A stretch of 64,000 nucleotides of DNA. Origin: a virus. Where the stretch lies: IMG/VR virus record IMGVR_UViG_3300048609_000070. The stretch is one strand, 5' to 3'. Position 1 is the first letter of the stretch, and the number at the start of each line of letters is the position of its first letter. Under the pieces are notes generated by a model that made no database searches, was not told the DNA's origin, and saw only the letters and a program-made list of their open reading frames with translations. This document shows positions 2,910-44,811 of this stretch, piece after piece. The translations under genes and the position numbers were made by a program.

Positions 2910-2930
2910 GGCTGCTCCTATATTGCGGCT

Positions 2931-4930: not shown

Positions 4931-5123
4931 TTTTATCTTCTTGCTAGGAGTGCGCGCATTGCCGCAGATGCTTCATGTCCATTTGGGAATGTCTTGCGAT
5001 CAAGCTCTTTTTCGCAGGGTTCCGCACTGAGAAGGACCAGATCACAAGGAGCGTCGAGATCACATTCAGCTTCATCAGACCAGTTTTCTGCTACTTTCCC
5101 TTGTGGGACAATGCGAAGGATGG

Positions 5124-5561
5124 TTAACATGTCTTTTTTCCTGTAGATAAAGAATCTTTGTTGTTTGAGCATGGGACATAAAACGGCGGTTGGGACCGTA
5201 TTAGAAGATCCGAAGTGTCCTTGAGAATTGCTTCTAGTTTTGGAAGGAGAAAAGATTCATGGACAAGATCGTAGAGTTCTTTTACAGCAGGGTTCTTGGA
5301 TGAAAATATGCAGTAGACGGAGCCGATGTTAAGAAGGGCAGCATCGGAGAGTGAAAGTCCCTGGATGTCGAAGATGGTATCGTTCAGCGTGACCTCGTAA
5401 CCAGTGACGTTTTTCGTCCATACGATAGTCTTGTCCTTTGTTTTTTTGATCAGGAGATCGAGAATTGCGCTAACGGTCTGGTCAACTGTCATGGGTTTCT
5501 CCTTGTGGTTATTCATGATATCTAAAAAAGTTACGTAACTGTCAGCAACGGGTTTATTCAT
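5124..5561 (-). CDS. hypothetical protein
   Basis: 145 aa ORF in a co-directional gene string. Confidence 0.4.
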   Translation of the reverse strand: MNKPVADSYVTFLDIMNNHKEKPMTVDQTVSAILDLLIKKTKDKTIVWTKNVTGYEVTLNDTIFDIQGLSLSDAALLNIGSVYCIFSSKNPAVKELYDLVHESFLLPKLEAILKDTSDLLIRSQPPFYVPCSNNKDSLSTGKKTC

Positions 5562-5871
5562 GTTTGGAGTCCGTAACTAAATTGTAGAGCTCTTCGACGA
5601 TGGAGCCTCGGAGCAGAAATAGAAAGTCTTTGATCTTATCTCTTGCATTCAGTCGTATTTCCAGGTTCTCCTTTGACAAACTAAAATCGTAGATGTCGCA
5701 TTCGTCGGTGGCAATGTATTTGTCCTCAGAGTAGTAGATATCGCATTTATCAGTAGCCACGTATCTGTCAGAAGATTTTTTCCATATGATCTTGCCTGTT
5801 TTTGTATCGTTAAAAAGGATTCTGGCTAGATTCTGCATGAGTTGCTCTACTAATTTATCTTGTTCTGGCAT
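5554..5871 (-). CDS. hypothetical protein with internal duplicated motif (YVATDKCDIYYSEDKYIATDECDIYD)
   Basis: 105 aa ORF with an internal peptide repeat. Confidence 0.4.
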   Translation of the reverse strand: MPEQDKLVEQLMQNLARILFNDTKTGKIIWKKSSDRYVATDKCDIYYSEDKYIATDECDIYDFSLSKENLEIRLNARDKIKDFLFLLRGSIVEELYNLVTDSKHE

Positions 5872-6037
5872 TGTTGACTCCTGTACCCTGATCTGGAATT
5901 CTTTTTAGGGGAGCCTAAACCAACTGATCGTTCTTTTGTTCCCAGGACAGACCACGGGCAAAGTGGCCAAGAGCTACTTCCTGTAACAGAATGGTAGTGT
6001 TTTTTCCAAGTAGAAAGAGACGCGATATAGAGGATTA

Positions 6038-6433
6038 TCATGGGTTTTCCAGTTTAGCAATGATGCAGTCGATTGGATTTTCCATTTTTTCCACAATGCA
6101 AGCATAAAGTCTGTAGACAGGTTCTTCACAGGAAAGCTTGGCCATGATCTGCCCTTTTCTTTGGATGGTGACACAGCGGAGGGTTTCTTTAGTCAAATAG
6201 TCCTTTTCGTAGAGATCTCCGACGAACACTTCGATTTCCTCTTCTGGAAATTTGATCGAAAACCCTTCTGGGGAAGCTAACCAAACTATTTTTTTGTTCA
6301 GGGTTGCTTTGCAGAGCACGTCAATGAACAAAGTTGCTTTTTCTTTTGAGAGGAGTTGGGACATATTATTTTCTCCGTACTTTAGTCTCTGGGAGAAAAG
6401 AACGTATTGTTCCTGAGACAAGATGAACCGCAT
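6038..6433 (-). CDS. hypothetical protein
   Basis: 131 aa ORF. Confidence 0.4.
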   Translation of the reverse strand: MRFILSQEQYVLFSQRLKYGENNMSQLLSKEKATLFIDVLCKATLNKKIVWLASPEGFSIKFPEEEIEVFVGDLYEKDYLTKETLRCVTIQRKGQIMAKLSCEEPVYRLYACIVEKMENPIDCIIAKLENP

Positions 6434-7038
6434 TATTTTCGCAACTTTGTTTTGTATGCACCTTGACGTATTCCTTTCGTTGGTACAAGAACTTATTTCC
6501 GGGTCTTAGTTTTCCGAATGTTGTTTCTTTCAGTGGGGATCTTCTCATAGTATATTTTTACCTTTCGTCCTTTCCTCGTCATCTGGACGAATCTGTAACC
6601 TGGCATGTTGAGACCAGCACACAGGGCAGCTGCTCCTTGATCGGGTGCTACATCCAACTCTAGTATTTTCTGTTTAGGAAGTTTCATGGGGTTTCCTTAA
6701 GAAGATCTGCACGTTATTCTAGACTTCCATTCGCGATGCGCTACTTCTGCACGGGAGCGTCCCAAGCAAGAATAGCATCGACAATATCCTTGTTGTATAC
6801 GCATCCAGGAATTCAATTTACTCTGGAATAAGGATCCACTCAACTTGTTCCCACCATGCTGATGATTTTGATGTTTCTGTTTTTCTGTTTGAAAGACTAC
6901 GATAAGCAGAGCCGGAACACGAACGTTTAGTATTGGACTCGTGAGAAGTCCTACCGTTTGAGTTAGAACGTAAATAAGGCCAATTGTCCATTCGACTAAA
7001 CGTTCTGAGGGTGGCGCTCGTTATAGGAACAGACCGTT

Positions 7039-8631: not shown

Positions 8632-9690
8632 ATGCGAAAACTGGCCACAATTCGAAAGGTATTGGACATCAAGCCCATCCCAAACGCGGATAGCATTGAA
8701 CTCGCGATGATCGGGGGTTGGCAATGCGTCGTCAAAAAGGGAGAATTCAAAATTGGTGACTTGGGGGTCTACTTCGAAATCGATTCCTTTTTACCGATAG
8801 ACGCCCGGTTCGAGTTCCTTCGGAAGTCATCCTACAAGACCCTGGCTGATGGGTCTGAAGGATTCCGTCTGAGGACGGTCAAGTTCCGAGGAGAGCTCTC
8901 TCAGGGGCTCTTGATGCCCTTGAGCACGTTTCCGGAGATGCCTGTGGATACCTACGACGTGACCAGTGCGCTCCATGTCAAGCTCTACACGCCGCCCACT
9001 CCTGCGTGCTTGTCCGGGGACGTCGTAGGGCCATTCCCTTCGTGCATACCCAAGACGGACGCGGAGAGGATCCAGAACATCCCTGACTACTTTTCCACAA
9101 TGAAAGATGAAGAATTTGAAGTCAGCGAAAAGGTCGATGGCACCAGTTTGACATGTTATTTTTTGAATGGAAAGGTTGGAGTCTGCGGCCGGAACTGGGA
9201 GTTAAAAGAAGACATGCGAAATGCTTACTGGAAGATCGCAAGTTATTTTATTCCTGCAGTGAAGGAGCTCCATTTGAATATTGCACTGCAAGGGGAGCTC
9301 TGTGGGGAGGGCATCCAGAGCAACCCTCTGAAGTTGAAAGGACAGAGATTATTTCTTTTCCATGTGTACGATCTGGATGAGAGTAAATATTACATGCCTG
9401 ATCAGCGTTGGGAATTGTTTGAGAAAATAAAATGTGATGCGCTGGATCACGTTCCGCTTATCAGTAAAAGAGTGAAAGTTTTTCAAGAATTGGATACCAT
9501 GGAAAAGATGCTGGATTATGCAGCAGGAAAGAGTTGTGTTTGTTCGCAGATGGTAACTTCAAAGTCTGTCCAAAGAAGAGTCATGGTTCAATCCACGATA
9601 GAACGTGAAGGATTGGTTTTCAAGTCTTGGAGTCATCCAGAGATTTGTTTCAAGGCGGTGAGCAATACTTATTTGTTGGGTGAGAAGTGA
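8632..9690 (+). CDS. ATP-dependent RNA ligase, Rnl-like (DraRnl/NgrRnl-type N-terminal domain)
   Basis: 352 aa. Nucleotidyltransferase motif I KVDGTS (candidate adenylylated Lys in SEKVDGTSLT). N-terminal IRKV..I.PIPNADSIELAMIGGWQCVVKKGEFKIGD resembles the Rnl5-family N-domain. Confidence 0.6.
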   Translation: MRKLATIRKVLDIKPIPNADSIELAMIGGWQCVVKKGEFKIGDLGVYFEIDSFLPIDARFEFLRKSSYKTLADGSEGFRLRTVKFRGELSQGLLMPLSTFPEMPVDTYDVTSALHVKLYTPPTPACLSGDVVGPFPSCIPKTDAERIQNIPDYFSTMKDEEFEVSEKVDGTSLTCYFLNGKVGVCGRNWELKEDMRNAYWKIASYFIPAVKELHLNIALQGELCGEGIQSNPLKLKGQRLFLFHVYDLDESKYYMPDQRWELFEKIKCDALDHVPLISKRVKVFQELDTMEKMLDYAAGKSCVCSQMVTSKSVQRRVMVQSTIEREGLVFKSWSHPEICFKAVSNTYLLGEK

Positions 9691-16919: not shown

Positions 16920-18101
16920 TCAATATAGATCCCTTTCGTGTCGTTCTTTTATGACATCTTGGCATAGATCGTCCAAAAAATTGATGTCTGGAGACTTTGG
17001 AATAAACTTCAAATAAGATCCGCTCTGGTAGATGCTATCGAGCTCTGCTTCTATCGTATCTGCAAAGTCTATCAGTTCATTATACGTCCAGGCACCATTC
17101 CTAACTTCCAGTAACAATTTTGCACGTTCTTTGTCTTTAACGTTGAGTGTTCCTTTGGTTAGGATTTCCTTACATTGCATCATCAGCCGTACCAGATGAG
17201 CAGCGTGTTTGCAATCGTAGCTAAACTTTGCTTCTGACTCTGCCCTTTTTTTATTCCGTGTCAAAATCCAATTTTGGTACTGATTCCACTCTGTCAACGC
17301 ATTTCTATATTTCTTTTCTGCTTGCAGAACGACAATATAGTTTTCATCAAACTTGTACTTCTTCGATGCCGCAAGCTTTGCAAGCTCGAACAACTTTTCG
17401 CTATCGAGCATGGCAATCAGTGAGTTGCGATGCTCCATGGCAATTGCCATCATTTCCACGATTCCATCTTGGATAGAACTGACAATGCTCTTGTCAACTT
17501 CTGCTTCTTCGAGGAGCCACAGACGCGCCTGTTTCTCTAGCAAGCTCTCTGCAGCTCCTCGGTTCTCTGGAGAGATCAAGCCAACGTCAGGAAGTCCATA
17601 CTCCGACCTTTCTGGCTTATGCGTCGGAGGATGCATTAGCCAACGTCTGTGCGTATTGATTCTTTTGAGTTGCGCTCTGGCATAACCAGAAAAAGAAAAC
17701 TTGGCACGACCGGAGAGGAATTTTGTGGCGTTCTCTCGAACGGATCTTCCTGCTTCCGAGCAATACATTGTCTCGCTCGGATCGATAAAAAGAAGCTCGA
17801 TGATGCTTGGGTTGCACACTGCAGCCAATTTGAAGAACTTTCTGATGTCGTAGATAACGACGTCTGCCGGATCTTCTGAGCTGTTGTATATTTTTTTGTA
17901 GTCTTTTGGAAGCCAACGGAGATCCCGTGGAGTAATTTTTAGTTCTGTTTGCTCGAAGTTTTTGTGGAATGATCGGAAATAATCAACGGGTGGAATGCAC
18001 CAGCCACGGACATCTAAATCTGAGGTTTCTGTTGCCATTCCATAGGCGTGAGACCCGGCAATCACCAGATATTCTGTATGATCGAAAACGTCGAATTCCA
18101 T
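16920..18101 (-). CDS. Pol-beta superfamily nucleotidyltransferase, RlaP-like
   Basis: 393 aa. NTase motif GSHAYGMATETSDLDVRG (GS..G...SDxD). Paralog at 36071..36826. Confidence 0.5.
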   Translation of the reverse strand: MEFDVFDHTEYLVIAGSHAYGMATETSDLDVRGWCIPPVDYFRSFHKNFEQTELKITPRDLRWLPKDYKKIYNSSEDPADVVIYDIRKFFKLAAVCNPSIIELLFIDPSETMYCSEAGRSVRENATKFLSGRAKFSFSGYARAQLKRINTHRRWLMHPPTHKPERSEYGLPDVGLISPENRGAAESLLEKQARLWLLEEAEVDKSIVSSIQDGIVEMMAIAMEHRNSLIAMLDSEKLFELAKLAASKKYKFDENYIVVLQAEKKYRNALTEWNQYQNWILTRNKKRAESEAKFSYDCKHAAHLVRLMMQCKEILTKGTLNVKDKERAKLLLEVRNGAWTYNELIDFADTIEAELDSIYQSGSYLKFIPKSPDINFLDDLCQDVIKERHERDLY

Positions 18102-19949: not shown

Positions 19950-20210
19950 CTACCTAGGATAAACAAGTAAATCCATGAGCACAACTGTTACCTCGTTATT
20001 AACAGTCTCACTGATTGCAAATATTCTTAAACTCCTTCCAACGCGAAAAACGTGTATATTATTTTGGAGTAAGGCATGCTCAGGAAGGTCCTGTAGTTTA
20101 TCCCAGGATAATGTTTTAGCGCGCTCAAAAAATCGGACAAGATCATTACGTTGTTCTGTATTGACTGATTCTGCTCTCTCAAGAAATTTTTCAGGAGCAA
20201 CTATTCTCAT
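19950..20210 (-). CDS. hypothetical protein
   Basis: 86 aa ORF immediately downstream of rmlD. Confidence 0.35.
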   Translation of the reverse strand: MRIVAPEKFLERAESVNTEQRNDLVRFFERAKTLSWDKLQDLPEHALLQNNIHVFRVGRSLRIFAISETVNNEVTVVLMDLLVYPR

Positions 20211-21013
20211 TTTAAACGACCAATTTCTGCAAGGTATCGATCCATAGCATCCTGCCAGGTTGGAAGTTTACTAAGAGGAAACGAGTTCAAGGCAGAAAAT
20301 TTGAGTCGTCTTGCCGGAGCTGAAAAAGAATCACTGCAATCTGGAAATACGCGGGTTGTGCTGTTCTTTAGAATGTAACTTGCCCATTCATGGCGGCTGC
20401 AAAATCCTGAATTAGTAAGATGGTAAAGTCCATATTCTTTTGTCTTTATCAAATCAAGAATTGCAGGTGCTAGATCTGTTGTATAGCTTGGACAAGACAT
20501 CTGATCGGTAACAACCTTTATTTCTTTTTGACTTGCACAGCTTAGAATTTTTTGTACGAAATTATTTGTCACGCCTGATCCAAAGACCCAGCTAAGCCTG
20601 ATAACAAAGTGCCTCCTGCAAAAATGCTGAAGTTTACTTTTCCCATATGCGTTGATAGGGTTTGGAAGATCCGCGATCGTATAAGGAGTTCTCTTTTCTC
20701 CGTCGAAGACATAATCAGTGCTGAAATGCACCAAGGGAATGTCATGTGCTTCTGCTACAATGGCTAGATTTCTTGGGCCAAGTGCATTGACGGAAATTGC
20801 GTCTTCAACGTGTGTTTCCGCCAGATCTACATGATTGTACGCAGCGGTATTAATGATGCAATGCACTCCATCTAATTTATCTCGGATAGCACCGAGATTT
20901 TGGATATCAAGAGAAGCATGATCGTAGGCAACGACATATTTTTCCCTTTTATGGAGTTCTTTTATCAAAGCTTTTGCGAGTTGTCCGTTGCTTCCGGTAA
21001 TGAGGGTGAACAT
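20207..21013 (-). CDS. rmlD: dTDP-4-dehydrorhamnose reductase
   Basis: 268 aa. ITGSNGQL Rossmann motif. HFSTDYVFDG. YGKSK catalytic motif. Confidence 0.8.
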   Translation of the reverse strand: MFTLITGSNGQLAKALIKELHKREKYVVAYDHASLDIQNLGAIRDKLDGVHCIINTAAYNHVDLAETHVEDAISVNALGPRNLAIVAEAHDIPLVHFSTDYVFDGEKRTPYTIADLPNPINAYGKSKLQHFCRRHFVIRLSWVFGSGVTNNFVQKILSCASQKEIKVVTDQMSCPSYTTDLAPAILDLIKTKEYGLYHLTNSGFCSRHEWASYILKNSTTRVFPDCSDSFSAPARRLKFSALNSFPLSKLPTWQDAMDRYLAEIGRLK

Positions 21014-21229
21014 TGCGTACCTTCCTCGCGATCTTCTTTAGTTAGTTCTTTCTTCCATTGATTCCGCGCTTGACGTTTGATGTGGATTCGTGCGATTCTT
21101 TTTCTTCGATGTGTCTGAGATGATCTTCCGTCGAGACGGGTAACTCTCGTTTTCCGACCACATAATCTTGCACCAGAGACGTCAGTATCTCCGTATTGTA
21201 GTCTCGTCATTCCGTATGGATGCATGCCC

Positions 21230-22560
21230 TCCTCCTAAAGAGCGCGCTCTTGGGCAAGGAGACTGCCGTCTTTAGGCAGCAGAGGAATTGCCATTTTCCT
21301 TTCTGTTAGGTATTGACACACACCAGAGAAGTATCTATACTTGACGCCATGAAGCTCGTTGCGAACATCAAGTTGAAACCGACGCAGGAGCAAGCAACTA
21401 TCCTCAAGCAAACCATTGAAGTATCCAACGAAGCCTGTAATTATCTGTCTAATCGTGCTTGGACCACGAAGACATTTGGTCAGTATGCCCTGCATAAATT
21501 GGCATACCGCGAAACCAAAGAAAGATTCAAGCTTACTGCTCAGGTTGTTGTACGATCTATTGCCAAGGTTACCGATGCCTATAAGCTGGATATAAAGACT
21601 AAACCGTACTTCAGGAAATATTCTGCTCAACCCTATGACGAACGGATTATTAGATTTTCTAAAGACGATATCGTTTCGATCTGGACTATTGCTGATCGTC
21701 AAAAGATACCGTTTGTGATGGGCGAGTACCAACGCAAGTTGTTTTTCTTCCGCAAGGGAGAAGTTGACCTGATGATGATCGACGATGAATTTTACCTTGC
21801 TTGCGTCTGCGACATCAAGGACCCCGAGCTTATCCAGACCAATGATATTCTTGGAGTAGACTTTGGTATAGTCAACCTTGCTGCCGACTCCAATGGGAAA
21901 AACTACAGCGGAAAAGCAATCAACAAGAACAGATGCAAATTTTCTCACCGCAGAAGAAATCTTCAAAAGAAGAAAACCAGATCCGCCAAACGGAAGCTTC
22001 GGGGTATGTCTAGACAGCAAGAACGCTTCCAGAAGGATACCAACCACGTAATCTCGAAAGCAATCGTTGCAGATGCTAAACGCACCGTCTCTGCTATCGC
22101 TCTTGAGGATCTTCGCGGTATCAGAAAACGGGTAACGGCCAGAAAGCACCAGCGGGCGCGGTTGTCGAACTGGGGCTTCGCCCAGTTGCAAGCCTTCGTG
22201 ACGTACAAAGCGAAGAAGATGGGAATACCCATTATTCTTGTAGATCCTAAGAATACTTCTCGGGAGTGCCCTAAGTGTGGACATATCGACAAGAAGAATC
22301 GAAAGACAAGGGATGAGTTCGTTTGTATCAAGTGCGGTCTTGCTGGACCCGCTGATACAATTGCGGCATGGACAATTCGTTCCAGGGCCAGGGCTGCTGT
22401 CAATCAGCCGATGGTTTCGAGTGTTTGTGCAAGCTTGCATGACCTCTCAGAAACAAGCCGCCCGCTTTAGCTGGCGGTTATTGACAACCAACAGGTTACT
22501 CCGTTTTCTTCGGGCTGTCAAGCACTTTTTTCGGCTATCCGCGATCTGGTCCCGTCTTTT
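21230..22560 (+). mobile_element. IS605-family (IS1341-like, tnpB-only) insertion; ends approximate
   Basis: tnpB flanked by hairpin-rich subterminal sequences. Candidate omega-RNA region with hairpin CCGCCCGC...GGCGG at about 22470-22560. Lies between rmlC and rmlD. Confidence 0.5.
21313..22470 (+). CDS. tnpB: IS200/IS605-family TnpB (RNA-guided nuclease), catalytic motifs intact
   Basis: 385 aa. RuvC-I ILGVDFGIVNLA. RuvC-II AIALEDLRGIRK. Zn finger CPKCGH...CIKCG. RuvC-III PADTIAAWTI. Confidence 0.85.
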   Translation: MTHTREVSILDAMKLVANIKLKPTQEQATILKQTIEVSNEACNYLSNRAWTTKTFGQYALHKLAYRETKERFKLTAQVVVRSIAKVTDAYKLDIKTKPYFRKYSAQPYDERIIRFSKDDIVSIWTIADRQKIPFVMGEYQRKLFFFRKGEVDLMMIDDEFYLACVCDIKDPELIQTNDILGVDFGIVNLAADSNGKNYSGKAINKNRCKFSHRRRNLQKKKTRSAKRKLRGMSRQQERFQKDTNHVISKAIVADAKRTVSAIALEDLRGIRKRVTARKHQRARLSNWGFAQLQAFVTYKAKKMGIPIILVDPKNTSRECPKCGHIDKKNRKTRDEFVCIKCGLAGPADTIAAWTIRSRARAAVNQPMVSSVCASLHDLSETSRPL

Positions 22561-23113
22561 CTGTAAATGGCTGATATTCTTGGTCTTTTTTAGACAGCTT
22601 GATATTCGCGTCCCTGATCGGCCACTCGATTCCGATTGCTGGATCATTGTAACGAATTCCATCCTCGTCTTCGGGGTGGTAGACCTCTGAGCACATGTAA
22701 CTGAGTATCGTGTTCTCCGAGAGCGCAAGGAACCCGTGTGCAAAGCCTTCCGGGACGTATAGGATAGCCATCTCTTTGTCAGACAGGGTGCCCCACCACT
22801 TCCCTGCGGACAGGTAGGTCCCCCACCACTTTCCTTGGGTTTCCCCTGGACGGATGTCTACCACCACATCAAAGGCCCTTCCCTGGAGGACCGTCACGAG
22901 CTTTGCTTGTGGGTATTTTTTTTGGAAGTGCATACCTCGAAGAGTCCCCCAACAAGAAATCGATACATTATTCTGGACAAAATTTTGGTCCCCAAGGACA
23001 TCCTTCAAAGCTAATTTATGATAGGTCTCCATGAAAGTTCCACGATCGTCCCTGTGGATTTGCGGCAGGAGGAGCTTAACTCCATCAAGAGGAGTTTCTT
23101 GTATTGTAAACAT
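22535..23113 (-). CDS. rmlC: dTDP-4-dehydrorhamnose 3,5-epimerase (probable start at MFTIQETPL)
   Basis: RmlC cupin signature: ..RG.H.Q...QAKLV.V..G...DV.VD.R..S..GKW.G..LS......L.VPEGFAHGF. The ORF track extends the N-terminus to 23260. Contains a 30-bp in-frame tandem duplication (GKWWGT x2). Confidence 0.8.
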   Translation of the reverse strand: MFTIQETPLDGVKLLLPQIHRDDRGTFMETYHKLALKDVLGDQNFVQNNVSISCWGTLRGMHFQKKYPQAKLVTVLQGRAFDVVVDIRPGETQGKWWGTYLSAGKWWGTLSDKEMAILYVPEGFAHGFLALSENTILSYMCSEVYHPEDEDGIRYNDPAIGIEWPIRDANIKLSKKDQEYQPFTEKTGPDRG

Positions 23114-23114
23114 G

Positions 23115-23537
23115 TCAGTAAAGTTCTTGATCTCTCGTTGGAAGTGGCGGTGGTTGCTGCTTTTTGACAGGAGCTGCTGGCATAGTAGCGGGCAAACTTG
23201 GAAGGATCCCTGCTGCAGAAAGACGTTCCTGGAGATACGTCTTGAGCTCCGGGATTCCATAGTTTAGCATTGCTTCAAATGTTGCCCAATAGTAGGAATT
23301 ATCGAGTTCTGCGTAAACAGTAAGTAATTCTTTTCCGGTTCCAGGAATAAAACTTGTCCAATCAAAGTCGAAAGAGAAGAGGACTTCAATGGCGTCTCCT
23401 GCACGGAGATTTTCATTGAAGATTTTAGATCCTTCGCCACCTTCTTCATAGTAATGTTTAGAGATGTTTAGGTTGACTTCTCGGTAGGCAGGATCGTCGC
23501 CGCCCAGTTGTGCCAAGATTTTTCGGAGTAGCAGCAT
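23115..23537 (-). CDS. hypothetical protein
   Basis: 140 aa ORF. Its stop overlaps the rmlC start. Confidence 0.4.
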   Translation of the reverse strand: MLLLRKILAQLGGDDPAYREVNLNISKHYYEEGGEGSKIFNENLRAGDAIEVLFSFDFDWTSFIPGTGKELLTVYAELDNSYYWATFEAMLNYGIPELKTYLQERLSAAGILPSLPATMPAAPVKKQQPPPLPTRDQELY

Positions 23538-24062: not shown

Positions 24063-24479
24063 TGCTGATAAAGCCGAAAGTGATTAGTCTGTATACTGAG
24101 TGGGATCACGACGTTCGAGACATTGGTGTCCATTCTTTATTTTTCTTGTACGTGATTTTCAACCTGCGTCCGTTTGTGGACGTCCTACCGTCCAGGGCCT
24201 TCGTCCGCCATCCCCCTTTGAAAAAACCTTTATGCTAGTCCTCTGGACCCCCACCCATGATGGTGGACCTTGTTGATGTGTCCGTCGAGATCATGACGTC
24301 CTGGATCATCTCATCGTGGCAGCCTAGTCTAGAGGGACGGCTAGACAGGGCTGTCTGTAACATCGTAATACAGCACCAGAGGTTGTCGCCGGTCACGCCA
24401 ACCGACGACGAGGGACATCCTCCGGGATCGAAGGGTCGTCTAGAGCCTTCAGACTGTATTGTAGCGATGTTCTCTGGGA

Positions 24480-24790
24480 AGTCAACTTAAATTTTTGGCT
24501 GGTCATGATCTATTGTCCCCGCTTCCAGTACTCCCGGTCCCGCAATCTGATGGAGCAGTGGCGCTGTCCCAGGTCCTATACCTGTGTCGCAGCATCGTCC
24601 CTGTCTATGTTTCGCCGGGTCTCGTCCCTGTGTGTCCCGTATGTCACTGGTGGTCCCGTTATGGCGTCTTCAGCCCGCCGAGCGTACAGTCTAGTCCGAG
24701 AGCTCCTTTTAGTATGGGTTGTCCCACCGGTTGATGTCTCGGTTCGTCCCAGACCGAAGCCTTCAGTTTGTCCCTTACACGTCCCTGTCT
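24480..24790. repeat. GTCCC-motif array (about 12 copies at 10-30 nt irregular spacing) downstream of the Cas12-like gene
   Basis: GTCCC recurs (GTCCCCGC.., GTCCCGCAAT.., GTCCCAGG.., GTCCCTGTC.., GTCCCGTATG.. etc.). The plus strand is pyrimidine-rich. No convincing ORF. Confidence 0.6.
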
Positions 24791-27700
24791 CAACCTAAAC
24801 TTTGATAACTTTTTGCTTCGACTGCTTTCCAGAAGACCGCGGCTTGAACCCACACGCTCGGGTCGAAGAATGTTCCGGAGGGGTCACGGAAGAGGACCAT
24901 CTTGTTTTTCTCGTTGATTTTGACATCTATCTTTTTTGTAGCCATCGCCGTGTACGTCCCATTACCGTCCTTCTTGAAAAATTCAACAGCATCACTCTTG
25001 AAGTGTCCCTGCAGAATTTTTCCGAGCTCCAGGTTCAGTAGGTGTCCGTCTGTCTCGTATGCCACAGCGCGTACAGGATTTGCACTCCCTGTCAAATAAT
25101 TCATACCGTGATTTTGAGCAGCGTTGACGTCAACGTGGATCCGTGACCCGTCGCTTGTGACAAGGTATGGCCCTCCAGGAACTGGAATCAAATCCCGTCG
25201 CTTCAGCTGTAGCAAGTCTAGCTTAGCCTCTTTTACGAATGGTCGGAGCCAATGTCCTTGCGTTTGGATCGCATTTACTTCCTCGTCACTCTTTATTTCG
25301 TAGCATGCAATCCCTGGCGTTCTTGTCCCAGCGCTAAAGATTGAGGAGAAAGCAACGGGTGCTTTGCCAATGGCAAAGCCTTCGGCTTTGGCCCTTCGTT
25401 CGATTTCTTGTGCAATAGAGCGGTGACTCCATTGTGCAAGACGGACGTTTTCCTCAAGGTCCTGATCCTCGGTGATTCTATATCGTGTCAAGTCACCGAG
25501 GACGATAATATCCACAGGAGTATACGTATGACTCCAACTTTTATTTGAATAGGTATTTCCTTTTGCCGCCTCAATTATAAATGCTGTGAGCGTCTTGATC
25601 CGATCCATCTTCAAGTTCTGGATATGGACCAATAATCGAGATGCTACCACGCCTTGGGTAGACTTTTCCATCCGGCGAACTGGATAGTCAGGGCGAGAAT
25701 GCCGATCCCACGCTCTGATGAGATCTCGCGTTTTCTCCAGATAAGCAATCCGCCATATGGACTTTCCTCCAAGAGTCATCTTCTCCTGTCGCCAATCGTG
25801 AATATCCTTGGCGATGCGTGTTTCCTCCTCGAAATAGATTGGGCGCATGATTCGTTCCCAATTCTCGTGGGGGCAACCATATAGGATGCTCAACTCTCTA
25901 TGCACATCTTTATCGAGCTTTCCTCTCATCCCATTGAGGAGCTCTTTCCTTACTTCAGGATCTTGTGTCCCGTGCAATTGCCTTAAACCTGATAGTTTAT
26001 CGAGTTCCCTCCCAATGCGCCATAACCGCTCTTGCGCTTCCTTGCGTCCTTCGATCGCTTTCTCTGCGGGCATACGCAGCAAAAACGTCTGCTCATGGTG
26101 GATCTTGTGCCCTTCGACAGACCATAGCGGGTCTGTGCTTTTTTCTGCCCCGACCTCGAAAATTGAGCATGTGGCTGACACTCTAATGCCCAGGTGGACT
26201 GCCATGATTCGAATGCCAGGGACGATAGGAGATTTTTTCTCCGCAGATCTTGTAATTTTGCTCTTTGAAAGATACCTTGCAATGTCTCTGCGATCGACCG
26301 TAGGAATTTTTGTCTTGTGCTCCTCGGTCTCTACATTGACCGAGAGCATCAAGTAGGCCATGGCTCCGGGTCGTCCATCTCGGAGCTTCCAGGCACTTGT
26401 CGGATCGGACACGAATCGAGGTGATAAGATGAGAGACGCTCCTCCGGCAATGCTGACTTTTCGTTGGATATTGTCTTGCGATTCATACGATAGATACTGC
26501 TTTTTCTTGTCGTCCCACATTTTGAGCAGACGCAATTGGTATGTTGGTGCAATCTGGAAAAAGAATTTACGAATGCAGACCCCATCTGAATCCTTAGAAA
26601 ATAACGGCAGATCTACACAGAGTCCCTGTTCATTTTGTTTGAGCGTATAAGGCGGGTTGTTTCGATTTGAAAGTCCCGAAAATAGGGTGAATCTCGGATG
26701 GGTCTCTGCATCCGGAAAAGTGAGCATTGGGAGTTCTTTTGCTTCCTGAATCTTTTTTAATACCTTGTTTTTCTTTGCCCAATGAAAAACAGCATCCGGG
26801 TCGTCGAAGGCTTCTTTGGCGAGGTCAAGTAAGATGGTGGATCCGTGGTCCCCAGCTTGTACAATTCTTTCTCTTTGGTCCGTGATACCTTTAAGCTTTT
26901 TCCAATTTTTTATCTCTCGCTCAGTGATGAGATAGGCAGATTTTTCTGCCCAATTTCCAGCTCTTTTGATCTGTTCTTCCCTTTTCTGTTCAATACAGAT
27001 CAGAGTCTGCGAGTCCCTTTCGCTATACGGATTTCCTAATTTTTCCAGTTCTGCCTCTAGATCTTGTGTCCGTGCTGTGAGATTATGCCGCCAGCTTTCC
27101 CAGGAATTGAGATGTCCAACGGCGAGGGTGAAAGCCATACGCTCGTAGGCTTGCAGAGCTGTGGTCCCTAAAATGTCAAAGAGGAATGGATCAGCAAGTG
27201 GAAGCGCCCCGAGTGAACGGATCTCGCTCACCAGCGAATCCATTATCAATTTTTCTTTATTGGATGCAACGTACTTTGTTGCTGCATCTTTCCAGCCGGG
27301 ATCTCCTGTCTTGAACAGAGTCAGCCAATGTGCTTCCCTGCCGACTGAAGGTCCCATGAAAAGGGAATTATTCTTGATCTGATCTTCCAGGTTGGATTCA
27401 CTATCCATTATTCGCTGGAGGGTCCGAACGAGATTTGCCGCGTGAGATCCTCCTTGGGATTCTTTCTGCACGAGGAGGCCCTGGTAGCCTCGGACTTCAT
27501 CGGCAGATCCAGAGCCGCCCTCGCGGTAGGACTCGACATAATAAGGATAGAGCTCCTTTAATAAGGAGCAGCATCTATCAATATTTTTTACTTTGCGTTC
27601 CTTGAGCTTTGCCTGCAATCGGGACGTCCATTCGGAGCCCGGGACAGTCTCTTTTTCGAGCCGGACGTCATCCTGACGAATGGTCACGAGCATCTTTTCA

Positions 27701-27813
27701 TAGAAACGCACCATGTCGTTCACGATCTGATGCGTATACGCTAGAGCTCTTGCCCCATCAGTATTGGATTTTCTTGGAACGTGAAGTTTTAATCGTATAG
27801 CTCTTGTGTCCAC
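24790..27813 (-). CDS. Cas12b (C2c1)-like type V effector homolog, predicted nuclease-dead (GTG start)
   Basis: 1007 aa. RuvC-I region IMAVHLGIRVSATCSIFEV matches Cas12b ..SVDLG.R.SA..SVF.V but has His in place of the catalytic Asp. RuvC-II IIVLGDLTRY compared with Cas12b ILLEELSEY. Cas12b-like RLAQWSHRS. FSSIFSAGTRTPGIACYEI compared with FSSRFDARTGAPGIRC. RuvC-III HVDVNAAQNHG is retained. RBS GAGGGAG upstream of GTG. Confidence 0.75.
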   Translation of the reverse strand: MDTRAIRLKLHVPRKSNTDGARALAYTHQIVNDMVRFYEKMLVTIRQDDVRLEKETVPGSEWTSRLQAKLKERKVKNIDRCCSLLKELYPYYVESYREGGSGSADEVRGYQGLLVQKESQGGSHAANLVRTLQRIMDSESNLEDQIKNNSLFMGPSVGREAHWLTLFKTGDPGWKDAATKYVASNKEKLIMDSLVSEIRSLGALPLADPFLFDILGTTALQAYERMAFTLAVGHLNSWESWRHNLTARTQDLEAELEKLGNPYSERDSQTLICIEQKREEQIKRAGNWAEKSAYLITEREIKNWKKLKGITDQRERIVQAGDHGSTILLDLAKEAFDDPDAVFHWAKKNKVLKKIQEAKELPMLTFPDAETHPRFTLFSGLSNRNNPPYTLKQNEQGLCVDLPLFSKDSDGVCIRKFFFQIAPTYQLRLLKMWDDKKKQYLSYESQDNIQRKVSIAGGASLILSPRFVSDPTSAWKLRDGRPGAMAYLMLSVNVETEEHKTKIPTVDRRDIARYLSKSKITRSAEKKSPIVPGIRIMAVHLGIRVSATCSIFEVGAEKSTDPLWSVEGHKIHHEQTFLLRMPAEKAIEGRKEAQERLWRIGRELDKLSGLRQLHGTQDPEVRKELLNGMRGKLDKDVHRELSILYGCPHENWERIMRPIYFEEETRIAKDIHDWRQEKMTLGGKSIWRIAYLEKTRDLIRAWDRHSRPDYPVRRMEKSTQGVVASRLLVHIQNLKMDRIKTLTAFIIEAAKGNTYSNKSWSHTYTPVDIIVLGDLTRYRITEDQDLEENVRLAQWSHRSIAQEIERRAKAEGFAIGKAPVAFSSIFSAGTRTPGIACYEIKSDEEVNAIQTQGHWLRPFVKEAKLDLLQLKRRDLIPVPGGPYLVTSDGSRIHVDVNAAQNHGMNYLTGSANPVRAVAYETDGHLLNLELGKILQGHFKSDAVEFFKKDGNGTYTAMATKKIDVKINEKNKMVLFRDPSGTFFDPSVWVQAAVFWKAVEAKSYQSLG

Positions 27814-27839
27814 GGATTTCTCACTCCCTCATTTATTTG

Positions 27840-28365
27840 GTCTCTTTTACCGTATCTGCATCAGTATTCCTTTGTCTCTAGCTTCTTTGTCGTGCTCCGG
27901 ACATTGCGTCTCGTTCTCTTTCTGTCTCTTTTTTCCGTTGGGCTGTTCGACCCGTCTCTTATCGTAGTAAATTTTTATCACCTGTCTCTTTTTTCTTTTG
28001 TTTCAAGAGGTCTCTTTTTTCCATCTTTTGTACGATAATCTACTGGTTGTATGCCGCCACGCCAGCGACATACGAGAGACATCCAGTAGGCCCCCTGGGT
28101 CGTGTAGAGCCAGGTTAGTAGATCGTACTTTATATCTCTGAATTTCAAAGAACTCTGCGCGAGTATTGTATCTTTCCCATCCATTGCCTCGTCTGTCTCA
28201 CCCCAAACCAAAAATCGCTTTCGTGTCTATTTCCGTTTTCCTCGATGTCTCAGTCCCAGCAACAACCGGCTGGGGACACGTCTCATTATTCACTCGTAAC
28301 ACTAGGCTCCAGTCTCTTTTTCGCTTTAGAGTAGAAGTTCTCATCCGGTCTCGTAATTGCCGTCT
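27840..28365. repeat. GTCTC-motif array 2 (about 18 copies; extended form GTCTCTTTTT(T)C) between the promoter and the Cas12-like start
   Basis: The plus strand is almost pure pyrimidine except G in GTCTC. Motif spacing 14-45 nt. No stop codons on plus only because of A-depletion. Transcribed on the minus strand from the promoter at 28374-28401. Confidence 0.65.
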
Positions 28366-28373
28366 CAGTATCA

Positions 28374-28401
28374 ATTCTAGCATGCCCACTTTTTTTGTCA
28401 A
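28374..28401 (-). promoter_or_regulatory. consensus sigma70 promoter (minus strand): TTGACA-16nt-TAGAAT with AT-rich UP region
   Basis: RC of 28374-28410 reads AATTAATTTTTCTCTTGACAAAAAAAGTGGGCATGCTAGAAT. Near-identical to the promoter at 30343-30370. Confidence 0.6.
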
Positions 28402-28618
28402 GAGAAAAATTAATTTACCGTAGGTTGAGTTTTTCCATGCGCGATGTCCTCGTCTTTTTCCTTCTCGTCTCTTTTTCTTTTCTCCATGCCGCGAAGCATA
28501 ATGTGCTTTTTTATGATCTCCTGCTCCTTCCTAGACCAGTAATGCTCTCGCATATGCCAGGCAATCCACAGAAGGATTGAGAAATGAAACAGCATGTTAA
28601 AGAAAGATTCCCACGAGG

Positions 28619-29395
28619 TCATGTGTTCCTCTCTGCTTGCATAGGGTCTCTTTGCATCCTCTCCAGCAGTCCGTAATATGCGGAGGCTAATCCACATTGG
28701 TCGCAAAGTTGAGTGAGTCCGACAGTCTCTATGATACTTTTTGTGCTTTCAAAAACACTCCCAATTTCCGTGCAGCTAGAGCATTCTCCGATTCTTATTT
28801 TTCCATTGACATCGATCATAGGAGAACACATTTTTCCAATTCTTTGTAATGTTCGGATCATAGTAACAAAATTCGCTTCCCGGAATTGCAATGCGAAAAG
28901 ATGAACGTTAGCGCAATGCGGAAAAACACGTTCACTTTTTGTATAGTTCTTTTTTGCTCGTCCTAAAAGTGTGATGCTAATCCCATCCTCGAAAAGTTGA
29001 GTGTTGGGGAGAGTCTCTAGCTTGAGATTTGCATGTATCACATGATAATTGGGGTAATATTTTGGGTGCGTCCTGATTTGCAAGCGTATGTTGGTAGTGG
29101 TCAGAAGATCCAACATATTGCGGTATTTTTCTTGGTCTGTATAGAACGAACCGTTACTCTGGATCATGATATCAGATTCAGGGAATACTTTACTGACGAT
29201 CTTGGCCCATGAAAAAAAGGAAGGGTGAAGTGTCGGTTCTCCACCTGTAATCTGGATTAAAATCGGTTTGACCTTCCGCAGCAATTTTAATGTAGCTGCA
29301 AAAGTCTTTTGCTCCATGTGCTCCCCGGAAGGATTTGCATCCTCCATGCAATGCGAGCAATTTTCAAGGCATCGGTTTGTAATTTTTACGAGCAT
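28619..29395 (-). CDS. radical SAM enzyme with C-terminal extra Cys cluster (twitch/SPASM-like)
   Basis: 258 aa. CxxxCxxC (CLENCSHC). GGEP motif (ITGGEPTLHP). C-terminal CSPM...GECSSCTEIG...CDQCG. Confidence 0.7.
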   Translation of the reverse strand: MLVKITNRCLENCSHCMEDANPSGEHMEQKTFAATLKLLRKVKPILIQITGGEPTLHPSFFSWAKIVSKVFPESDIMIQSNGSFYTDQEKYRNMLDLLTTTNIRLQIRTHPKYYPNYHVIHANLKLETLPNTQLFEDGISITLLGRAKKNYTKSERVFPHCANVHLFALQFREANFVTMIRTLQRIGKMCSPMIDVNGKIRIGECSSCTEIGSVFESTKSIIETVGLTQLCDQCGLASAYYGLLERMQRDPMQAERNT

Positions 29396-29399
29396 GGGT

Positions 29400-39540: not shown

Positions 39541-41390
39541 GGGCTGACGGGTTCATCCCGTCAGTCCCCTGCCACACCACCGGACATGCGGGTCCGCATC
39601 CGGCGGTTCGGTAGGTTGAGGTTATGCCGCAAGCCTCGGTACTCCTTGTCGGTCGTAGTAGCTCGTCGGCAGCGCAGTGTTCAACAGCTTCGCGGAATTG
39701 CACCACCAGCGGCGTGAGTTCGCGGCCACCCGCCGGGCGGCCTGGTCATTCGCTCCAAGCCGCTTCATCTCCCGGTAGATGGTCTTCCCTCGTATCCACT
39801 GTTTGAGCTGTATCATCCGCAGACGATGGCGTATCCATTCGTCGAGATTCATGAAGATGCCAGGCGTCTCGGCCAGGCGGAAATACCCTTTCCACCCAAG
39901 CAGGTAAGCCCGTAGCTCCGCGAACACCCGATTCATGCTCCGCCCTCGACTCCGGGTCGTGATGTCCCGGACCCGCTGCTTCATCGCTTCAAGGGCTTTT
40001 GGCGCCACGCGCCGCCGGACGACCTTTCCCGGGGCTACCCAGAAGCTGTACCCCAGGAACTTCCTTTCCCACGGTCGTGCCACCGCGCTCTTCATCTCGT
40101 TGACTCGCAGCCGTAGTCGCGCGTACAAGTCCCGAAGGGCCCGCATCACACGCTCGCCAGCTCGCTGCGACCCAACGTACACGTTGCAGTCATCAGCGTA
40201 GCGGACAAACGCATGCCCACGCTTCTCCAGCTCCTTATCCACTTCGTCGAGGAGCACGTTCGCCAACAGCGGTGAGAGAGGGCCGCCCTGCGGCGTCCCC
40301 TCGTACCGCTCCGTTGCCACCCCTCCCGCCATGATGCCGGCTTCGAGGTAGCGCCGGATGAGCCCCAGCATCCGCCTGTCTCCAATGCGCTTCTCCAGCC
40401 TCCCCATCAGCACGTCGTGGTTGACCCGGTCGAAGAACCGCTCCAGGTCCACGTCCACCACCACCCGCCTCCCTTCCTGGACATACCGCTGCGCTTCGCA
40501 GACCGCGTCGTGTGCGCTATGCCCGGGCCGAAAGCCGTGGCTGTGCTTCGAGAAGGTCGGGTCGAACATCGGTTGCAGGACCTGCAGGATGCTCTGCTGG
40601 ATGAACCGGTCGAGCACGGTTGGGATGCCAAGCTTTCGCACCCCGCCCCCGCTCTTCGGTATCTCCGCTTCCCGCACCGGTTTCGGCTGGTAGGTGCCTT
40701 CGAGCAGCTGCGCTCGAGTCGCCTCCCAGTGTTCAATCAGGTGCTTCGGCAGCTCGTCGACGGTCATCCCGTCCACACCGGGGCTGCCCTTGTTCTGCCG
40801 TACCCGCTTCAACGCCGCCTTGGCATTGCCGCGCTCGACCACCCGTTCCATCAGGTGGTCGATTCCTGAGCGCTCATCTCCGTTCGCCGCCGTCGGGGTT
40901 TCGCCGCTCCGTTGGGCCCTCGGGGCTTCACCCCTGCCTCCCAGCGGTAGCTCCAGCTGATTGGACTTCTGGCGCCTGACCCTTCCGAGACTCACGGTTG
41001 CCTCGCTCTCCCTTCCGTTCGGCCCTTCGCCGTTGCCGGCTACTATGGCCTCTGCTGACTTCTCGGTCCGGCTTTGTGCCGTCGCCCTTTCAGGCGTGGG
41101 CCGAGATCTCCTCAGGTAAGGGTTCATGGACTTCGCCGCACAGCCGCCGGATTTACGTCGTCTGACTCTTGGTCGCGAGGGCTTCGCGGTCCTTTGCCCG
41201 CTCGCCCTTGTCGACGCCGCCTTGTATCCGGTTCTTGTTCATCGGCTCGCGGCTTCACTACCCGCTTCTTTCAGCGCCGGCCTCGCGGCCGGACCGGTCT
41301 CCCGGCTTGCCGCCTTGCGGTTCGTGTGGGTCGCTGCGACCAACTCCCCAGGGGACTTTCACCCCCTGTCCATTCCCATGCTGAGCACAC
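39538..41390 (-). mobile_element. bacterial group II intron (about 1.85 kb); boundaries approximate
   Basis: 5' end GUGUGCUCAGCAUGG... at RC of about 41390. Domain V-like hairpin CCGCCGGATGCGGACCCGCATGTCCGGTGG and domain VI GGGGACTGACGGGATGAACCCGTCAGCCCC near 39541-39620. IEP in domain IV. GC about 62% against a flank of about 38%. Confidence 0.8.
39622..41127 (-). CDS. ltrA: group II intron-encoded reverse transcriptase/maturase
   Basis: 501 aa. RT motifs: GIPTVLDRFIQQS. GFRPG.SAHDA. YADD in FVRYADDCNVYVG. Maturase X domain. Confidence 0.9.
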   Translation of the reverse strand: MNPYLRRSRPTPERATAQSRTEKSAEAIVAGNGEGPNGRESEATVSLGRVRRQKSNQLELPLGGRGEAPRAQRSGETPTAANGDERSGIDHLMERVVERGNAKAALKRVRQNKGSPGVDGMTVDELPKHLIEHWEATRAQLLEGTYQPKPVREAEIPKSGGGVRKLGIPTVLDRFIQQSILQVLQPMFDPTFSKHSHGFRPGHSAHDAVCEAQRYVQEGRRVVVDVDLERFFDRVNHDVLMGRLEKRIGDRRMLGLIRRYLEAGIMAGGVATERYEGTPQGGPLSPLLANVLLDEVDKELEKRGHAFVRYADDCNVYVGSQRAGERVMRALRDLYARLRLRVNEMKSAVARPWERKFLGYSFWVAPGKVVRRRVAPKALEAMKQRVRDITTRSRGRSMNRVFAELRAYLLGWKGYFRLAETPGIFMNLDEWIRHRLRMIQLKQWIRGKTIYREMKRLGANDQAARRVAANSRRWWCNSAKLLNTALPTSYYDRQGVPRLAA

Positions 41391-43770: not shown

Positions 43771-44811
43771 CTAGGCTAGGTTTGCTAGTGGCTTACCTAA
43801 CTTCAAAGGCGTTTGATGTCCCAAACGGAGTATGTTTTGAGCCGCATTAATATCGCGACTGTGAGTTTGCCCACAACTCTCACAAGTCCATACTCTTACG
43901 GAAAGGTCTGTCAGATCCTTCGGCCCCGACCTTTCCAGGCATTGACCACACGTTTGCGTAGTATATGCTTCGCTGACCAAGTGGAAGGCACCTTGCCGTC
44001 TACTGACCTTATATTCAAGGAGCCTTATCAGTCCTCGGTAAGCAGTATCATTGGTAGATTTACCACTTTGCAACTTCAAATCACCAACATAGATTTCTTG
44101 GTAAGTGCTGGCTAACTTGGTGGATATCTTATGGAGGTTATCCTGACGTTGACGCTGAACCTTACGAGCAAGATGCTTATGTTGCTTAGACTTTCTAAAC
44201 CGTTGGAGATTACCTAGCTTGACTACGCTTTTTCGAAAGCATTTAGGATTGTCAAAGACTTCTCCGTTAGAAGATACAGCAATACTGTTTAGTCCAAGGT
44301 CGATACCTACATGCACAGAGATTAGTGCTTTGGGTAGCAACTCAACCTCGCAAACCAATGTCAAATACCAATCTCCACAAGCATCTTCTACGAAGCTCCC
44401 TGTACATACTTTTCCTTCTAGTTCACGGGATTTGAAGAATTTGAACCAAGTACCATTGAACTTTACTTTATTATCTTTGACCTTGATAGAAATTGCCTTG
44501 AAAGGAATCCATCCTAAAGACTTCCTTGTGCGCCACTTTAGTTTACGACGGCATGTTTGTTTGCGAGATTTAGCATAAGTTTCATCGATTGCCTGTATAG
44601 TAGTAGCAGGTATCTTTAGAAGTTTACAGGAACCAGCAGTCAGGTTGTTCAAGTCAAATCCGGTTAGGAATTTATAGTGAGATTTAATCGCCTTACAGGA
44701 AGTTTCGTTGTCGTAGTTCCAGACAAAGTTAACTTTGGAAGCAGCTACGCGCAAGTGGCGCAGCTTGGAACGCGAAAGTTTGAACTTGTAAGTCGTATAC
44801 ATAACGTTCAC
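43771..44811 (-). CDS. tnpB: IS200/IS605-family TnpB homolog with non-canonical RuvC-II (GDL in place of EDL)
   Basis: 346 aa. RuvC-I VGIDLGL. RuvC-II position reads EIYVGDLKL. Zn finger CGQC...CESCG. RuvC-III SRDINAAQNIL. Hairpin CCCCGCCTTGAAAGACGGGG about 20 bp downstream of the stop. Confidence 0.8.
   Translation of the reverse strand: MNVMYTTYKFKLSRSKLRHLRVAASKVNFVWNYDNETSCKAIKSHYKFLTGFDLNNLTAGSCKLLKIPATTIQAIDETYAKSRKQTCRRKLKWRTRKSLGWIPFKAISIKVKDNKVKFNGTWFKFFKSRELEGKVCTGSFVEDACGDWYLTLVCEVELLPKALISVHVGIDLGLNSIAVSSNGEVFDNPKCFRKSVVKLGNLQRFRKSKQHKHLARKVQRQRQDNLHKISTKLASTYQEIYVGDLKLQSGKSTNDTAYRGLIRLLEYKVSRRQGAFHLVSEAYTTQTCGQCLERSGPKDLTDLSVRVWTCESCGQTHSRDINAAQNILRLGHQTPLKLGKPLANLA

Follow-up and report, generated by a model that had tools for sequence, protein, structure and literature searches.

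In type V-B CRISPR systems, the guide RNA of the effector Cas12b combines a long repeat/anti-repeat stem with a 5-bp short repeat/anti-repeat duplex that adjoins the guide, in a pseudoknot (PMC11246509). An inactivated variant of this type, Cas12b3, is found on conjugative plasmids of Actinomyces, and interference by binding alone, which is established for Cas12c and Cas12m, has been proposed for it (Makarova et al. 2025, PMC12669027). Cas12b is also active in vitro when its scaffold is combined with a repeat-free guide supplied as a second RNA (PMC12246129). Here, we analyze a stretch of 64,000 nucleotides (nt) of viral DNA (IMG/VR record IMGVR_UViG_3300048609_000070; the whole stretch is called the window below), in which a pentamer, G[A/G]GAC when read on the minus strand, the strand of the surrounding genes and promoters, recurs in 62 units. 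The units fall into four blocks (30310-29412, 28366-28195, 28014-27840 and 24791-24515) that flank a gene for a Cas12b-family protein, and all of them share one strand with that gene, with two scaffold-like RNAs that we name T1 and T2, and with the promoters. On our best reading, this region belongs to a derived RNA-guided system of type V-B (Cas12b) that is carried on a phage-like element.

The likeness to ordinary type V-B loci is considerable: the window protein passes the curated Cas12b model, T1 and T2 have the V-B core of a trans-activating CRISPR RNA (tracrRNA), V-B repeats have the same sequence at their 3' end as the pentamer, to which the short anti-repeat is complementary, and the order of scaffold and then units on the gene strand is the usual order of tracrRNA and then array. 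The window differs from these loci in that two RuvC carboxylates of the effector are lost, there is neither a 36-nt repeat nor a period of about 72 nt, cas1, cas2 and cas4 are missing within about 10 kb of the effector, two tracrRNA paralogues carry different anti-repeats, the units sit in mRNA leaders and a trailer, and the carrier is phage-like. Cas12b3 shares with it the substitutions in RuvC-I and RuvC-II, the mobile element, a reduced ("mini") array and predicted binding without cleavage (PMC12669027). The mini array of Cas12b3 consists of CRISPR repeats according to the figure legend, whereas the window has a pentamer in about 62 copies, in arrays that, unlike that array as described, are not built of recognizable full repeats; the two are compared by description only. 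A tblastn search of PLSDB returned only a canonical Alicyclobacillus cas12b, at 27% identity. Cas12m, Cas12c and two dead regulators derived from TnpB/Cas12f, TldR and the sigma-associated dCas12f, resemble the proposed system in RNA-guided binding of DNA without cleavage, which serves silencing or regulation, and in guide loci that were reduced or remodelled after nuclease loss (PMC10691335, PMC10705468), but they belong to other protein lineages and use a full scaffold or repeat for each guide, and none has been reported with a 5-nt repeat. The split Cas12b guide known as tracrDR + Spacer likewise pairs a scaffold with a separate short guide that has no long repeat (PMC12246129); it is engineered, its repeat is supplied with the scaffold and its guide is tagless, whereas the window has a tag of 5 nt. 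Cas12b, the tracrRNA, and nuclease loss with array reduction are known kinds. The 5-nt repeat, the roughly 62 units, the matched scaffold paralogues and the placement in leaders and a trailer have no precedent in the loci that we sampled or the literature that we searched.

The evidence that ties the pentamer to Cas12b comes from repeat ends. We collected about 80 Cas12b loci from genomes by tblastn and extracted their CRISPR repeats; canonical arrays were found in 50 loci. Nearly all repeats end in GGCAC (more than 40 genome loci), and the pair GGCAC/GUGCC is that of most Cas12b systems, those of Bacillota included. Among the four top-ranked tblastn loci (L090-L093) and the locus of protein P0003 (L086), the repeats end in GGGAC in L086, L092 and L093 and in GAGAC in L091, and the repeat of L090 is cut off at the contig end so that its own end is unreadable; the lower-ranked L097 ends in GGGAC and L211 in GAGAC. 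Because the repeats of the highest-scoring relatives end in GGGAC or GAGAC, the window pentamers are the two short-repeat variants of this Cas12b branch. Complementarity between repeat end and anti-repeat holds in other loci with each of the three pairs GGCAC/GUGCC, GGGAC/GUCCC and GAGAC/GUCUC. T1 and T2 share a 13-nt block, GGAUGUC[C/U]CUCGU, that is identical but for the one base that gives the anti-repeats GUCCC in T1 and GUCUC in T2. The array beside T1 (array C) has GGGAC in 11 of its 14 units, and the array around T2 (array A) has GAGAC in 13 of 14 (Fisher P=3e-4; P=3e-5 for array C against array A and the larger array B together). GUCUC is able to pair with GGGAC too, with one G-U pair in the duplex, and the smaller share of GGGAC units in array B may be due to this. 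That scaffold and array co-vary at a single base is the strongest evidence that the pentamers act by pairing with the scaffolds, and we consider it likely, from the sequences compared here, that the motif belongs to the Cas12b RNA system through anti-repeat pairing. The parts of the locus, in the direction of transcription, are as follows.

30343 to 30370, minus strand: promoter P2 (TTGACA-16-TAGAAT), twin of P1, which drives array B and the radical SAM gene.

29412 to 30310, minus strand: array B, 34 units (27 GAGAC and 7 GGGAC), lying in the purine-rich leader of the radical SAM gene.

28619 to 29395, minus strand: gene for a radical SAM protein of 258 aa between arrays B and A, matched by generic radical SAM models only.

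28374 to 28401, minus strand: promoter P1 (TTGACA-16-TAGAAT, extended TG).

28195 to 28366, minus strand: upstream half of array A, 7 units (6 GAGAC and 1 GGGAC), the first of them at the predicted transcript start.

28122 to 28149, minus strand: element of T2 that resembles a promoter but is degenerate (TTTGAA-16-TACGAT); the alignment of T1 and T2 shows its homology with the T1 promoter.

28030 to 28114, minus strand: T2 tracrRNA-like scaffold, recognized by the architecture scan, by covariance model R2 and by the pairs it has in common with T1; hairpin 1 from 28114, stem A at 28089-28083, anti-repeat GUCUC at 28080-28076, hairpin 2, stem A' at 28046-28040 and tail AUUAUCGUAC at 28039-28030.

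27840 to 28014, minus strand: downstream half of array A, 7 units, all GAGAC, lying after T2 and before the Cas12b start codon.

24790 to 27813, minus strand: Cas12b-family gene, 1007 aa, with RuvC-I D to H, RuvC-II E to G and the RuvC-III D kept.

24515 to 24791, minus strand: array C, 14 units (11 GGGAC and 3 GAGAC), which starts on the Cas12b stop codon.

24458 to 24485, minus strand: T1 promoter (TTGACT-16-TACAAT).

24358 to 24450, minus strand: T1 tracrRNA-like scaffold downstream of the Cas12b gene, recognized by covariance model R2; hairpin 1 from 24450, stem A at 24425-24419, anti-repeat GUCCC at 24416-24412, hairpin 2, stem A' at 24382-24376 and then the tail, followed by a strong hairpin at about 24356-24320.

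24131 to 24301, minus strand: possible degenerate units, 8 NGGAC downstream of T1, on weak evidence.

An initial annotation of positions 27840-28401, made from the sequence alone, had drawn attention to GTCTC on the plus strand, and its central claim of strong, strand-specific clustering holds. It had counted about 18 copies where about 0.3 would be expected; we find 13 exact copies, whereas 5000 shuffles that preserve the composition average 1.0 copy and never exceed 7. The reverse complement, GAGAC, occurs on the plus strand of this segment once, at 28076. Its description of that strand as almost pure C/T, with G nearly confined to the motif, was overdrawn, since 64% of the strand is pyrimidine and 13 of the 100 G residues lie inside the motif. 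The same annotation had placed a consensus promoter at 28401-28374 on the minus strand and an implied transcription start on a copy of the motif, and both agree with what we see: P1 matches the consensus at 11 of 12 positions and has an extended TG, and a start about 7 nt past the promoter falls on or just before the GAGAC at 28366-28362. It missed the motif-free scaffold, the larger array at 29412-30310, the GTCCC-rich array at 24515-24791 and the second tracrRNA-like gene.

Across the whole window there are 99 copies of GTCTC, 45 of which lie inside 27600-30400, where the strand bias is complete (45 to 1 against the reverse complement). Outside the arrays the motif occurs at background frequency, neither avoided nor enriched (54 copies in about 61 kb), so the initial annotation's own doubt, that the motif might be as frequent throughout the genome, does not apply. 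An extended form, GTCTCTTT, has 18 copies in the 64-kb window, every one of them within 27647-30306. When all 5-mers were scanned without bias, the longest non-homopolymer chains in the window proved to be those of GAGAC and GGGAC (minus strand). Spacing is irregular, yet more regular than random. Within 27840-28401, 8 of the 13 intervals are 20-36 nt, an over-representation relative to random placement (P=0.002). Intervals below 12 nt are rarer than under random placement. Array B has 27 GTCTC against 2.3 expected, again with enrichment of the 20-36 nt spacing (P=0.0007). Units are mostly 20-36 nt apart, often with an A-rich stretch before the pentamer (most units of arrays A and B), and show no helical phasing. 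Coding or decayed coding sequence was considered and set aside, as the region has only short open reading frames (ORFs), spacings that are not multiples of three, no frame periodicity and no family matches. Two further 1-kb bins rich in GTCCC, at 22-23 kb and 53-54 kb, proved to be ordinary coding sequence with wide spacing. Rfam at gathering thresholds gave no family in the region; in the whole window it matched nothing but domains of a group II intron (41022-41292).

The promoters that precede these arrays are closely alike, the alignment of P1 and P2 giving a common block TTTCTCTTGACAAA...GCTAGAAT. The purine content of array B without its motifs is 66%, compared with 53-56% in neighboring coding regions. 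All family matches of the radical SAM gene lie under the equivalog cut-offs. At the other end of array A, the last unit (27844-27840) directly precedes the ribosome-binding site of the Cas12b gene.

The motif-free 185-nt gap in array A (28030-28190) is a structured, tracrRNA-like element, T2. We scanned for a pattern of stem A, 0-3 nt, the reverse complement of the repeat end, a hairpin, stem A', 0-3 nt and 8 nt complementary to the repeat. This layout was recovered between cas genes and array in many loci, each time with an anti-repeat complementary to the locus's own repeat end; the window's minus strand has it at 28089-28030 (CUACUGG au GUCUC ... CCAGUAG a UUAUCGUA). To avoid circularity, no window sequence went into covariance model R2, for which 29 tracrRNA cores were taken from other genomes; MAFFT alignments of the cores were too poor, and a rough model with model-based realignment was used instead. 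Over the whole window, the best match of R2 is T1 (24425-24366, minus strand; 27.2 bits, E=9.8e-5). With filters off over 8 kb, T1 reaches E=3.5e-6 and T2 comes second, at 14.3 bits (E=0.017), with the next match at 7.8 bits.

T1 and T2 are about 73% identical, promoter regions included. All 21 of the 21 pairs in their three helices are kept, 11 of them changed on both sides and none broken, whereas controls with shifted partners give at most one two-sided change. The retention of every pair through 11 compensatory changes points to ongoing selection, and on this comparative evidence T1 and T2 are paralogous structured RNAs under selection. A closing helix between the scaffold promoter region and the tail is predicted in both (7+5 bp in T1, 7 bp in T2); because its registers differ between the two, it was not counted as co-variation. 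Past T1, the loop of the strong hairpin (24340-24333, minus strand) repeats the anti-repeat context GUCCCUC, and this loop could be a second docking site for GGGAC.

The gene between arrays A and C had been called dCas12b-like in the initial annotation, a name that suits it. Its 1007-aa ORF scores 310 bits against the NCBIfam Cas12b model NF033949 (cut-off 150), is matched by the Pfam C2c1 RuvC-like, helical and Nuc-II domains, and aligns to C2c1 chains of the PDB at E=7e-43. In an alignment with AacCas12b structures and 98 relatives, the window protein has H, G and D where AacCas12b has D570, E848 and D977, so that RuvC-I has gone from D to H and RuvC-II from E to G. In the same alignment, D stands at the first RuvC site in 80 of 99 relatives and E at the second in 79 of 99. 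The loss of two RuvC carboxylates supports the view that the window Cas12b is nuclease-dead. The protein is isolated in sequence space: a word-indexed search of 5.8 billion proteins found only the protein itself and one match at 25% identity, and the nearest relative in an exhaustive HMMER search is 37% identical. A genome scan with the window protein as single query gave no match, and there was none among INPHARED phages.

Two relatives with dead Cas12b look like intermediate forms, judging from their repeats and tracrRNAs. In L211, which encodes the dead protein P0036, the tracrRNA lies upstream, carries GUCUC and has a tail UCUUCCCUCU that pairs perfectly with the repeats, whose ends are purine-rich (...GGGAAGAGAGAC); the dead gene lies between two canonical arrays ending AGAGGGAAGAGAGAC, one on each side, as in the window layout. 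The difference is that L211 has kept 36-nt repeats at the canonical period. In L089, which encodes the dead protein P0004, a tracrRNA-like core with GUCUC accompanies just two units that share 13 nt (GCAATTGTGGGAC), not dozens. The proteins of both loci are only 29-37% identical to the window protein. Chains of at least five short-repeat pentamers with intervals of at most 45 nt, outside coding sequence or a normal array, were found in 0 of 85 other Cas12b loci. A search of IMG/VR for the same motif array in the form GTCTCTTTTT-N10-40-GTCTCTTTTT yielded 85 loci, all chance singles or unrelated tandem repeats (as in L066). Two observations on the relatives stand apart from these comparisons. 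The L211 locus (1990-6480, JGI 3300045115), with its RuvC-dead P0036 and upstream tracrRNA, has an MmeI-like restriction-modification gene beside it. In L172 (7744-10700), the gene for P0015, a Cas12b with D to N in RuvC-I, is followed by several separate canonical arrays with repeats ending GGGAC or GGAAC, and the same stretch has several weak tracrRNA-like matches to R2.

We favor a reading in which the usual 36-nt repeat would have been reduced to the pentamer, with the units borne in the leaders and trailer of two transcription units that have near-consensus promoters. Long purine-rich transcripts from P1 and P2 would be cut into short RNAs that each start with a pentamer, the pentamer would dock on the anti-repeat of a scaffold within the Cas12b protein, and the 10-30 nt after it would serve as the guide. 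The loss of two RuvC carboxylates is proposed to result in binding without cleavage, so DNA would be bound without being cut and targets would be silenced or occupied. The activity of Cas12b in vitro with a split guide lacking a repeat (PMC12246129) makes a very short tag biochemically plausible. The initial annotation had listed a noncanonical guide or processing array among its candidate roles, and it is this role that we now prefer, the pentamer being the Cas12b short repeat and two tracrRNA-like scaffolds carrying its complement. It is by inference that we speak of transcripts being processed, of pentamer-bearing RNAs being loaded, of DNA being bound, of silencing and of targets, and whether the units act as guides by this minimal-repeat mechanism we judge to be close to an even question. 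A fuller version, in which a 5-nt tag is read by dedicated scaffolds and the phage packs about 60 guides into 1.7 kb of leader and trailer sequence for massively multiplexed, cleavage-free silencing of host or rival genes, is put forward tentatively; equally tentative is the part of it in which two orthogonal pairs, GAGAC/GUCUC and GGGAC/GUCCC, sort the guides between two scaffolds.

Several observations weigh against guides of this kind. About 30% of the intervals are shorter than 19 nt, below normal guide size. A scrambled long anti-repeat abolished the activity of BhCas12b in most cases (PMC11246509), and in the window a complement to the T2 tail, UACGAUAA or UACGGUAA, is carried by only two units (27966-27954 and 27856-27840), with 8 bp each and energies in the top few percent of the null, not beyond it; no long-repeat partner for the T1 tail was found among the units. 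Between their motifs, arrays A and B consist of A-rich sequence with 60-73% purine, which would be odd for captured spacers and fits an unstructured RNA platform better. Cas1, Cas2 and Cas4 domains are absent from the ORFs within about 10 kb either side of the effector, and the nearest relative, at 37% identity, is too distant for conservation of the arrays to be checked. Targets are missing as well. Within the 64-kb window no unit has one, the best 18-mer matches having 2-5 mismatches and the seeds being at chance level, and one metagenome scan and six scans of IMG/VR gave matches at chance level only, so the spacer-like matches that the initial annotation had suggested looking for did not materialize in the collections searched. 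The best match in IMG/VR is 18 of 18 (21 of 24), in a terminase-like gene and without a T-rich flank. The segment concerned, AGCGCCACTGCTCCATCAGATTGC, follows the GGGAC at 24570 (24565-24542, minus strand); its match lies in a terminase-large-subunit-like gene of four related contigs (L204-L207, 40-42% GC) with the 5' flank CCATAACA, and the number of matches equals the chance expectation for an 18-mer. A canonical array of repeats of about 36 nt and spacers of about 35 nt was not found in the region; the longest repeated unit is the 13-nt GTCTCTTTTTTCC, in 5 copies, and TRF found no array.

The purine-rich RNA sponge that the initial annotation had also proposed is, to us, unlikely, though it ranks first among the alternatives. 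Here, pentamer-rich, highly expressed purine-rich transcripts would titrate tracrRNA-Cas12b complexes and the inter-motif segments would carry no information. The complexes could be the element's own, whose free level the sponge would set, or those of a host type V-B system, in which case the transcripts would be an RNA anti-CRISPR and the dead Cas12b a dominant-negative. The composition of arrays A and B fits, as purine-rich, A-rich sequence should be unstructured, and so do the irregular spacing with its many short intervals, the failure to find targets and the near-consensus promoters in front of both arrays. The 2025 classification likewise raises the possibility that a phage-encoded Cas9 in which a domain is dead works as an anti-CRISPR (PMC12669027). 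What does not fit is that the pentamers are matched to scaffolds of the element itself, with every array suited to its neighbor, and not to the common GGCAC/GUGCC pair, and that the spacing is more regular than random, with few intervals below 12 nt, which a pure sponge would not need.

A cis-regulatory role ranks next and is also improbable. T1 and T2, with or without the protein, would pair with the pentamers of the radical SAM and Cas12b mRNAs and set their stability or translation; alternatively, T2 and the first unit after it would form a natural single guide that represses P1 and P2 as feedback. The arrays indeed lie inside mRNA leaders and a trailer, with no separate array transcript, and the last unit stands directly before the Cas12b ribosome-binding site. 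Moreover, the guide of the first unit after T2, CUCUUGAAACAAAAG (28009-27990), begins with CUCUUGA, the same 7 bases as the start of the P1 and P2 -35 regions, where they follow TTT, and it matches P1 at 12 of 16 positions (28404-28385) and P2 at 10 of 16 (30373-30354). Repression of cas promoters through partial matches is known from the Cas9 tracr-L and from CreR RNAs. The atypical or delocalised CRISPR RNAs of type V-K CRISPR-associated transposons, CreR and tracr-L have repeats, truncated or degenerate, that keep the tracrRNA-pairing part, and their targets are fixed and non-immune; there are 1-2 units per locus, with 12-17 nt of repeat. The window, by comparison, has dozens of 5-nt units, and the match of its guide seed to the promoters lacks significance: in 24% of trials, guides that had been shuffled yielded one or more 7-base matches of this kind, so the match is only a lead. 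Mismatches at positions 8 and 10 would hinder extension of the R-loop, 62 sites go far beyond what feedback needs, and the seed of no other guide matches a promoter.

That the locus is a decaying relic, the functionless remains of former CRISPR arrays or of coding sequence, seems very improbable. The absence of adaptation genes, canonical repeats and targets would agree with decay. But 36-nt repeats spaced at about 72 nt would not decay into 62 exact pentamers spaced at about 25-30 nt, nor would decay keep the base that matches each scaffold; the promoters are near consensus, the T1/T2 pairs were kept via 11 compensatory changes, and there is neither a long ORF nor frame periodicity. Least credible of all is an element that acts as DNA, either as protein-binding sites (the iterons or centromere of the initial annotation, or a packaging site) or as a cluster of type IIS restriction sites, GTCTC being the BsmAI/Alw26I recognition site: a short motif repeated many times in intergenic DNA would suit it, but the strand bias is complete (45 to 1), the two variants each go with the scaffold that carries their complement, spacing is irregular without helical phasing, no Par, Rep, terminase or helix-turn-helix gene was detected beside the arrays, and the rest of the window shows neither depletion nor enrichment of GTCTC.

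The genes around the locus look phage-like and include an RNA ligase, a nucleotidyltransferase, a methyltransferase, a vault-shoulder protein and many small ORFs without family matches. No structural genes were identified, and the carrier is most safely called a phage-like element. Directly upstream of P2, 30392-32899 (minus strand) encodes a protein of 835 aa in which the shoulder and repeat domains of the major vault protein are recognized; ORFs of the huge-phage genomes LR756500-LR756503 match this protein at 39% identity across more than 90% of its length. These phages were considered as carriers of a similar array and rejected; only LR756500 was examined, which has a GC content of 24% and lacks a motif cluster like this one. 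A metallo-beta-lactamase-fold protein (33661-34374, plus strand) has a sub-threshold match to the anti-Pycsar protein Apyc1 (44.6 bits, cut-off 50) together with weak matches to RNase Z and cyclic-nucleotide phosphodiesterases. An RNA-repair-like set comprises an RNA ligase, a nucleotidyltransferase, an RlaP-family polymerase-beta-fold protein and a DHH phosphoesterase (8632-9690, 16920-18101, 36071-36826 and 37465-38505). Directly downstream of the Cas12b/T1 locus and still within the phage-like region, 20207-23260 (minus strand) holds the dTDP-rhamnose pathway genes RmlD (20207-21013) and an RmlC-like gene (22535-23260). Farther away on the minus strand lie a group II intron (39622-41292), with a reverse transcriptase/maturase ORF at 39622-41127 and Rfam domains D1-D4 at 41022-41292, and, within the phage-like region, a transposase-like gene (43771-44811; PHROG 506, E=2e-60).

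In conclusion, if the units are guides, the pentamer would be the shortest natural CRISPR repeat known and the first to be reduced to the short repeat/anti-repeat contact alone, showing how far the guide-loading rules of Cas12b can relax and pointing to very compact multiplex guide arrays for CRISPR interference. A phage-borne, cleavage-free Cas12b would then join the growing list of RNA-guided regulators. If the locus is instead a sponge or a feedback device, a type V effector would be controlled at the RNA level by a device of a new kind. On either view, a clean and directly testable prediction follows from the one base at which the two scaffolds and their arrays co-vary.

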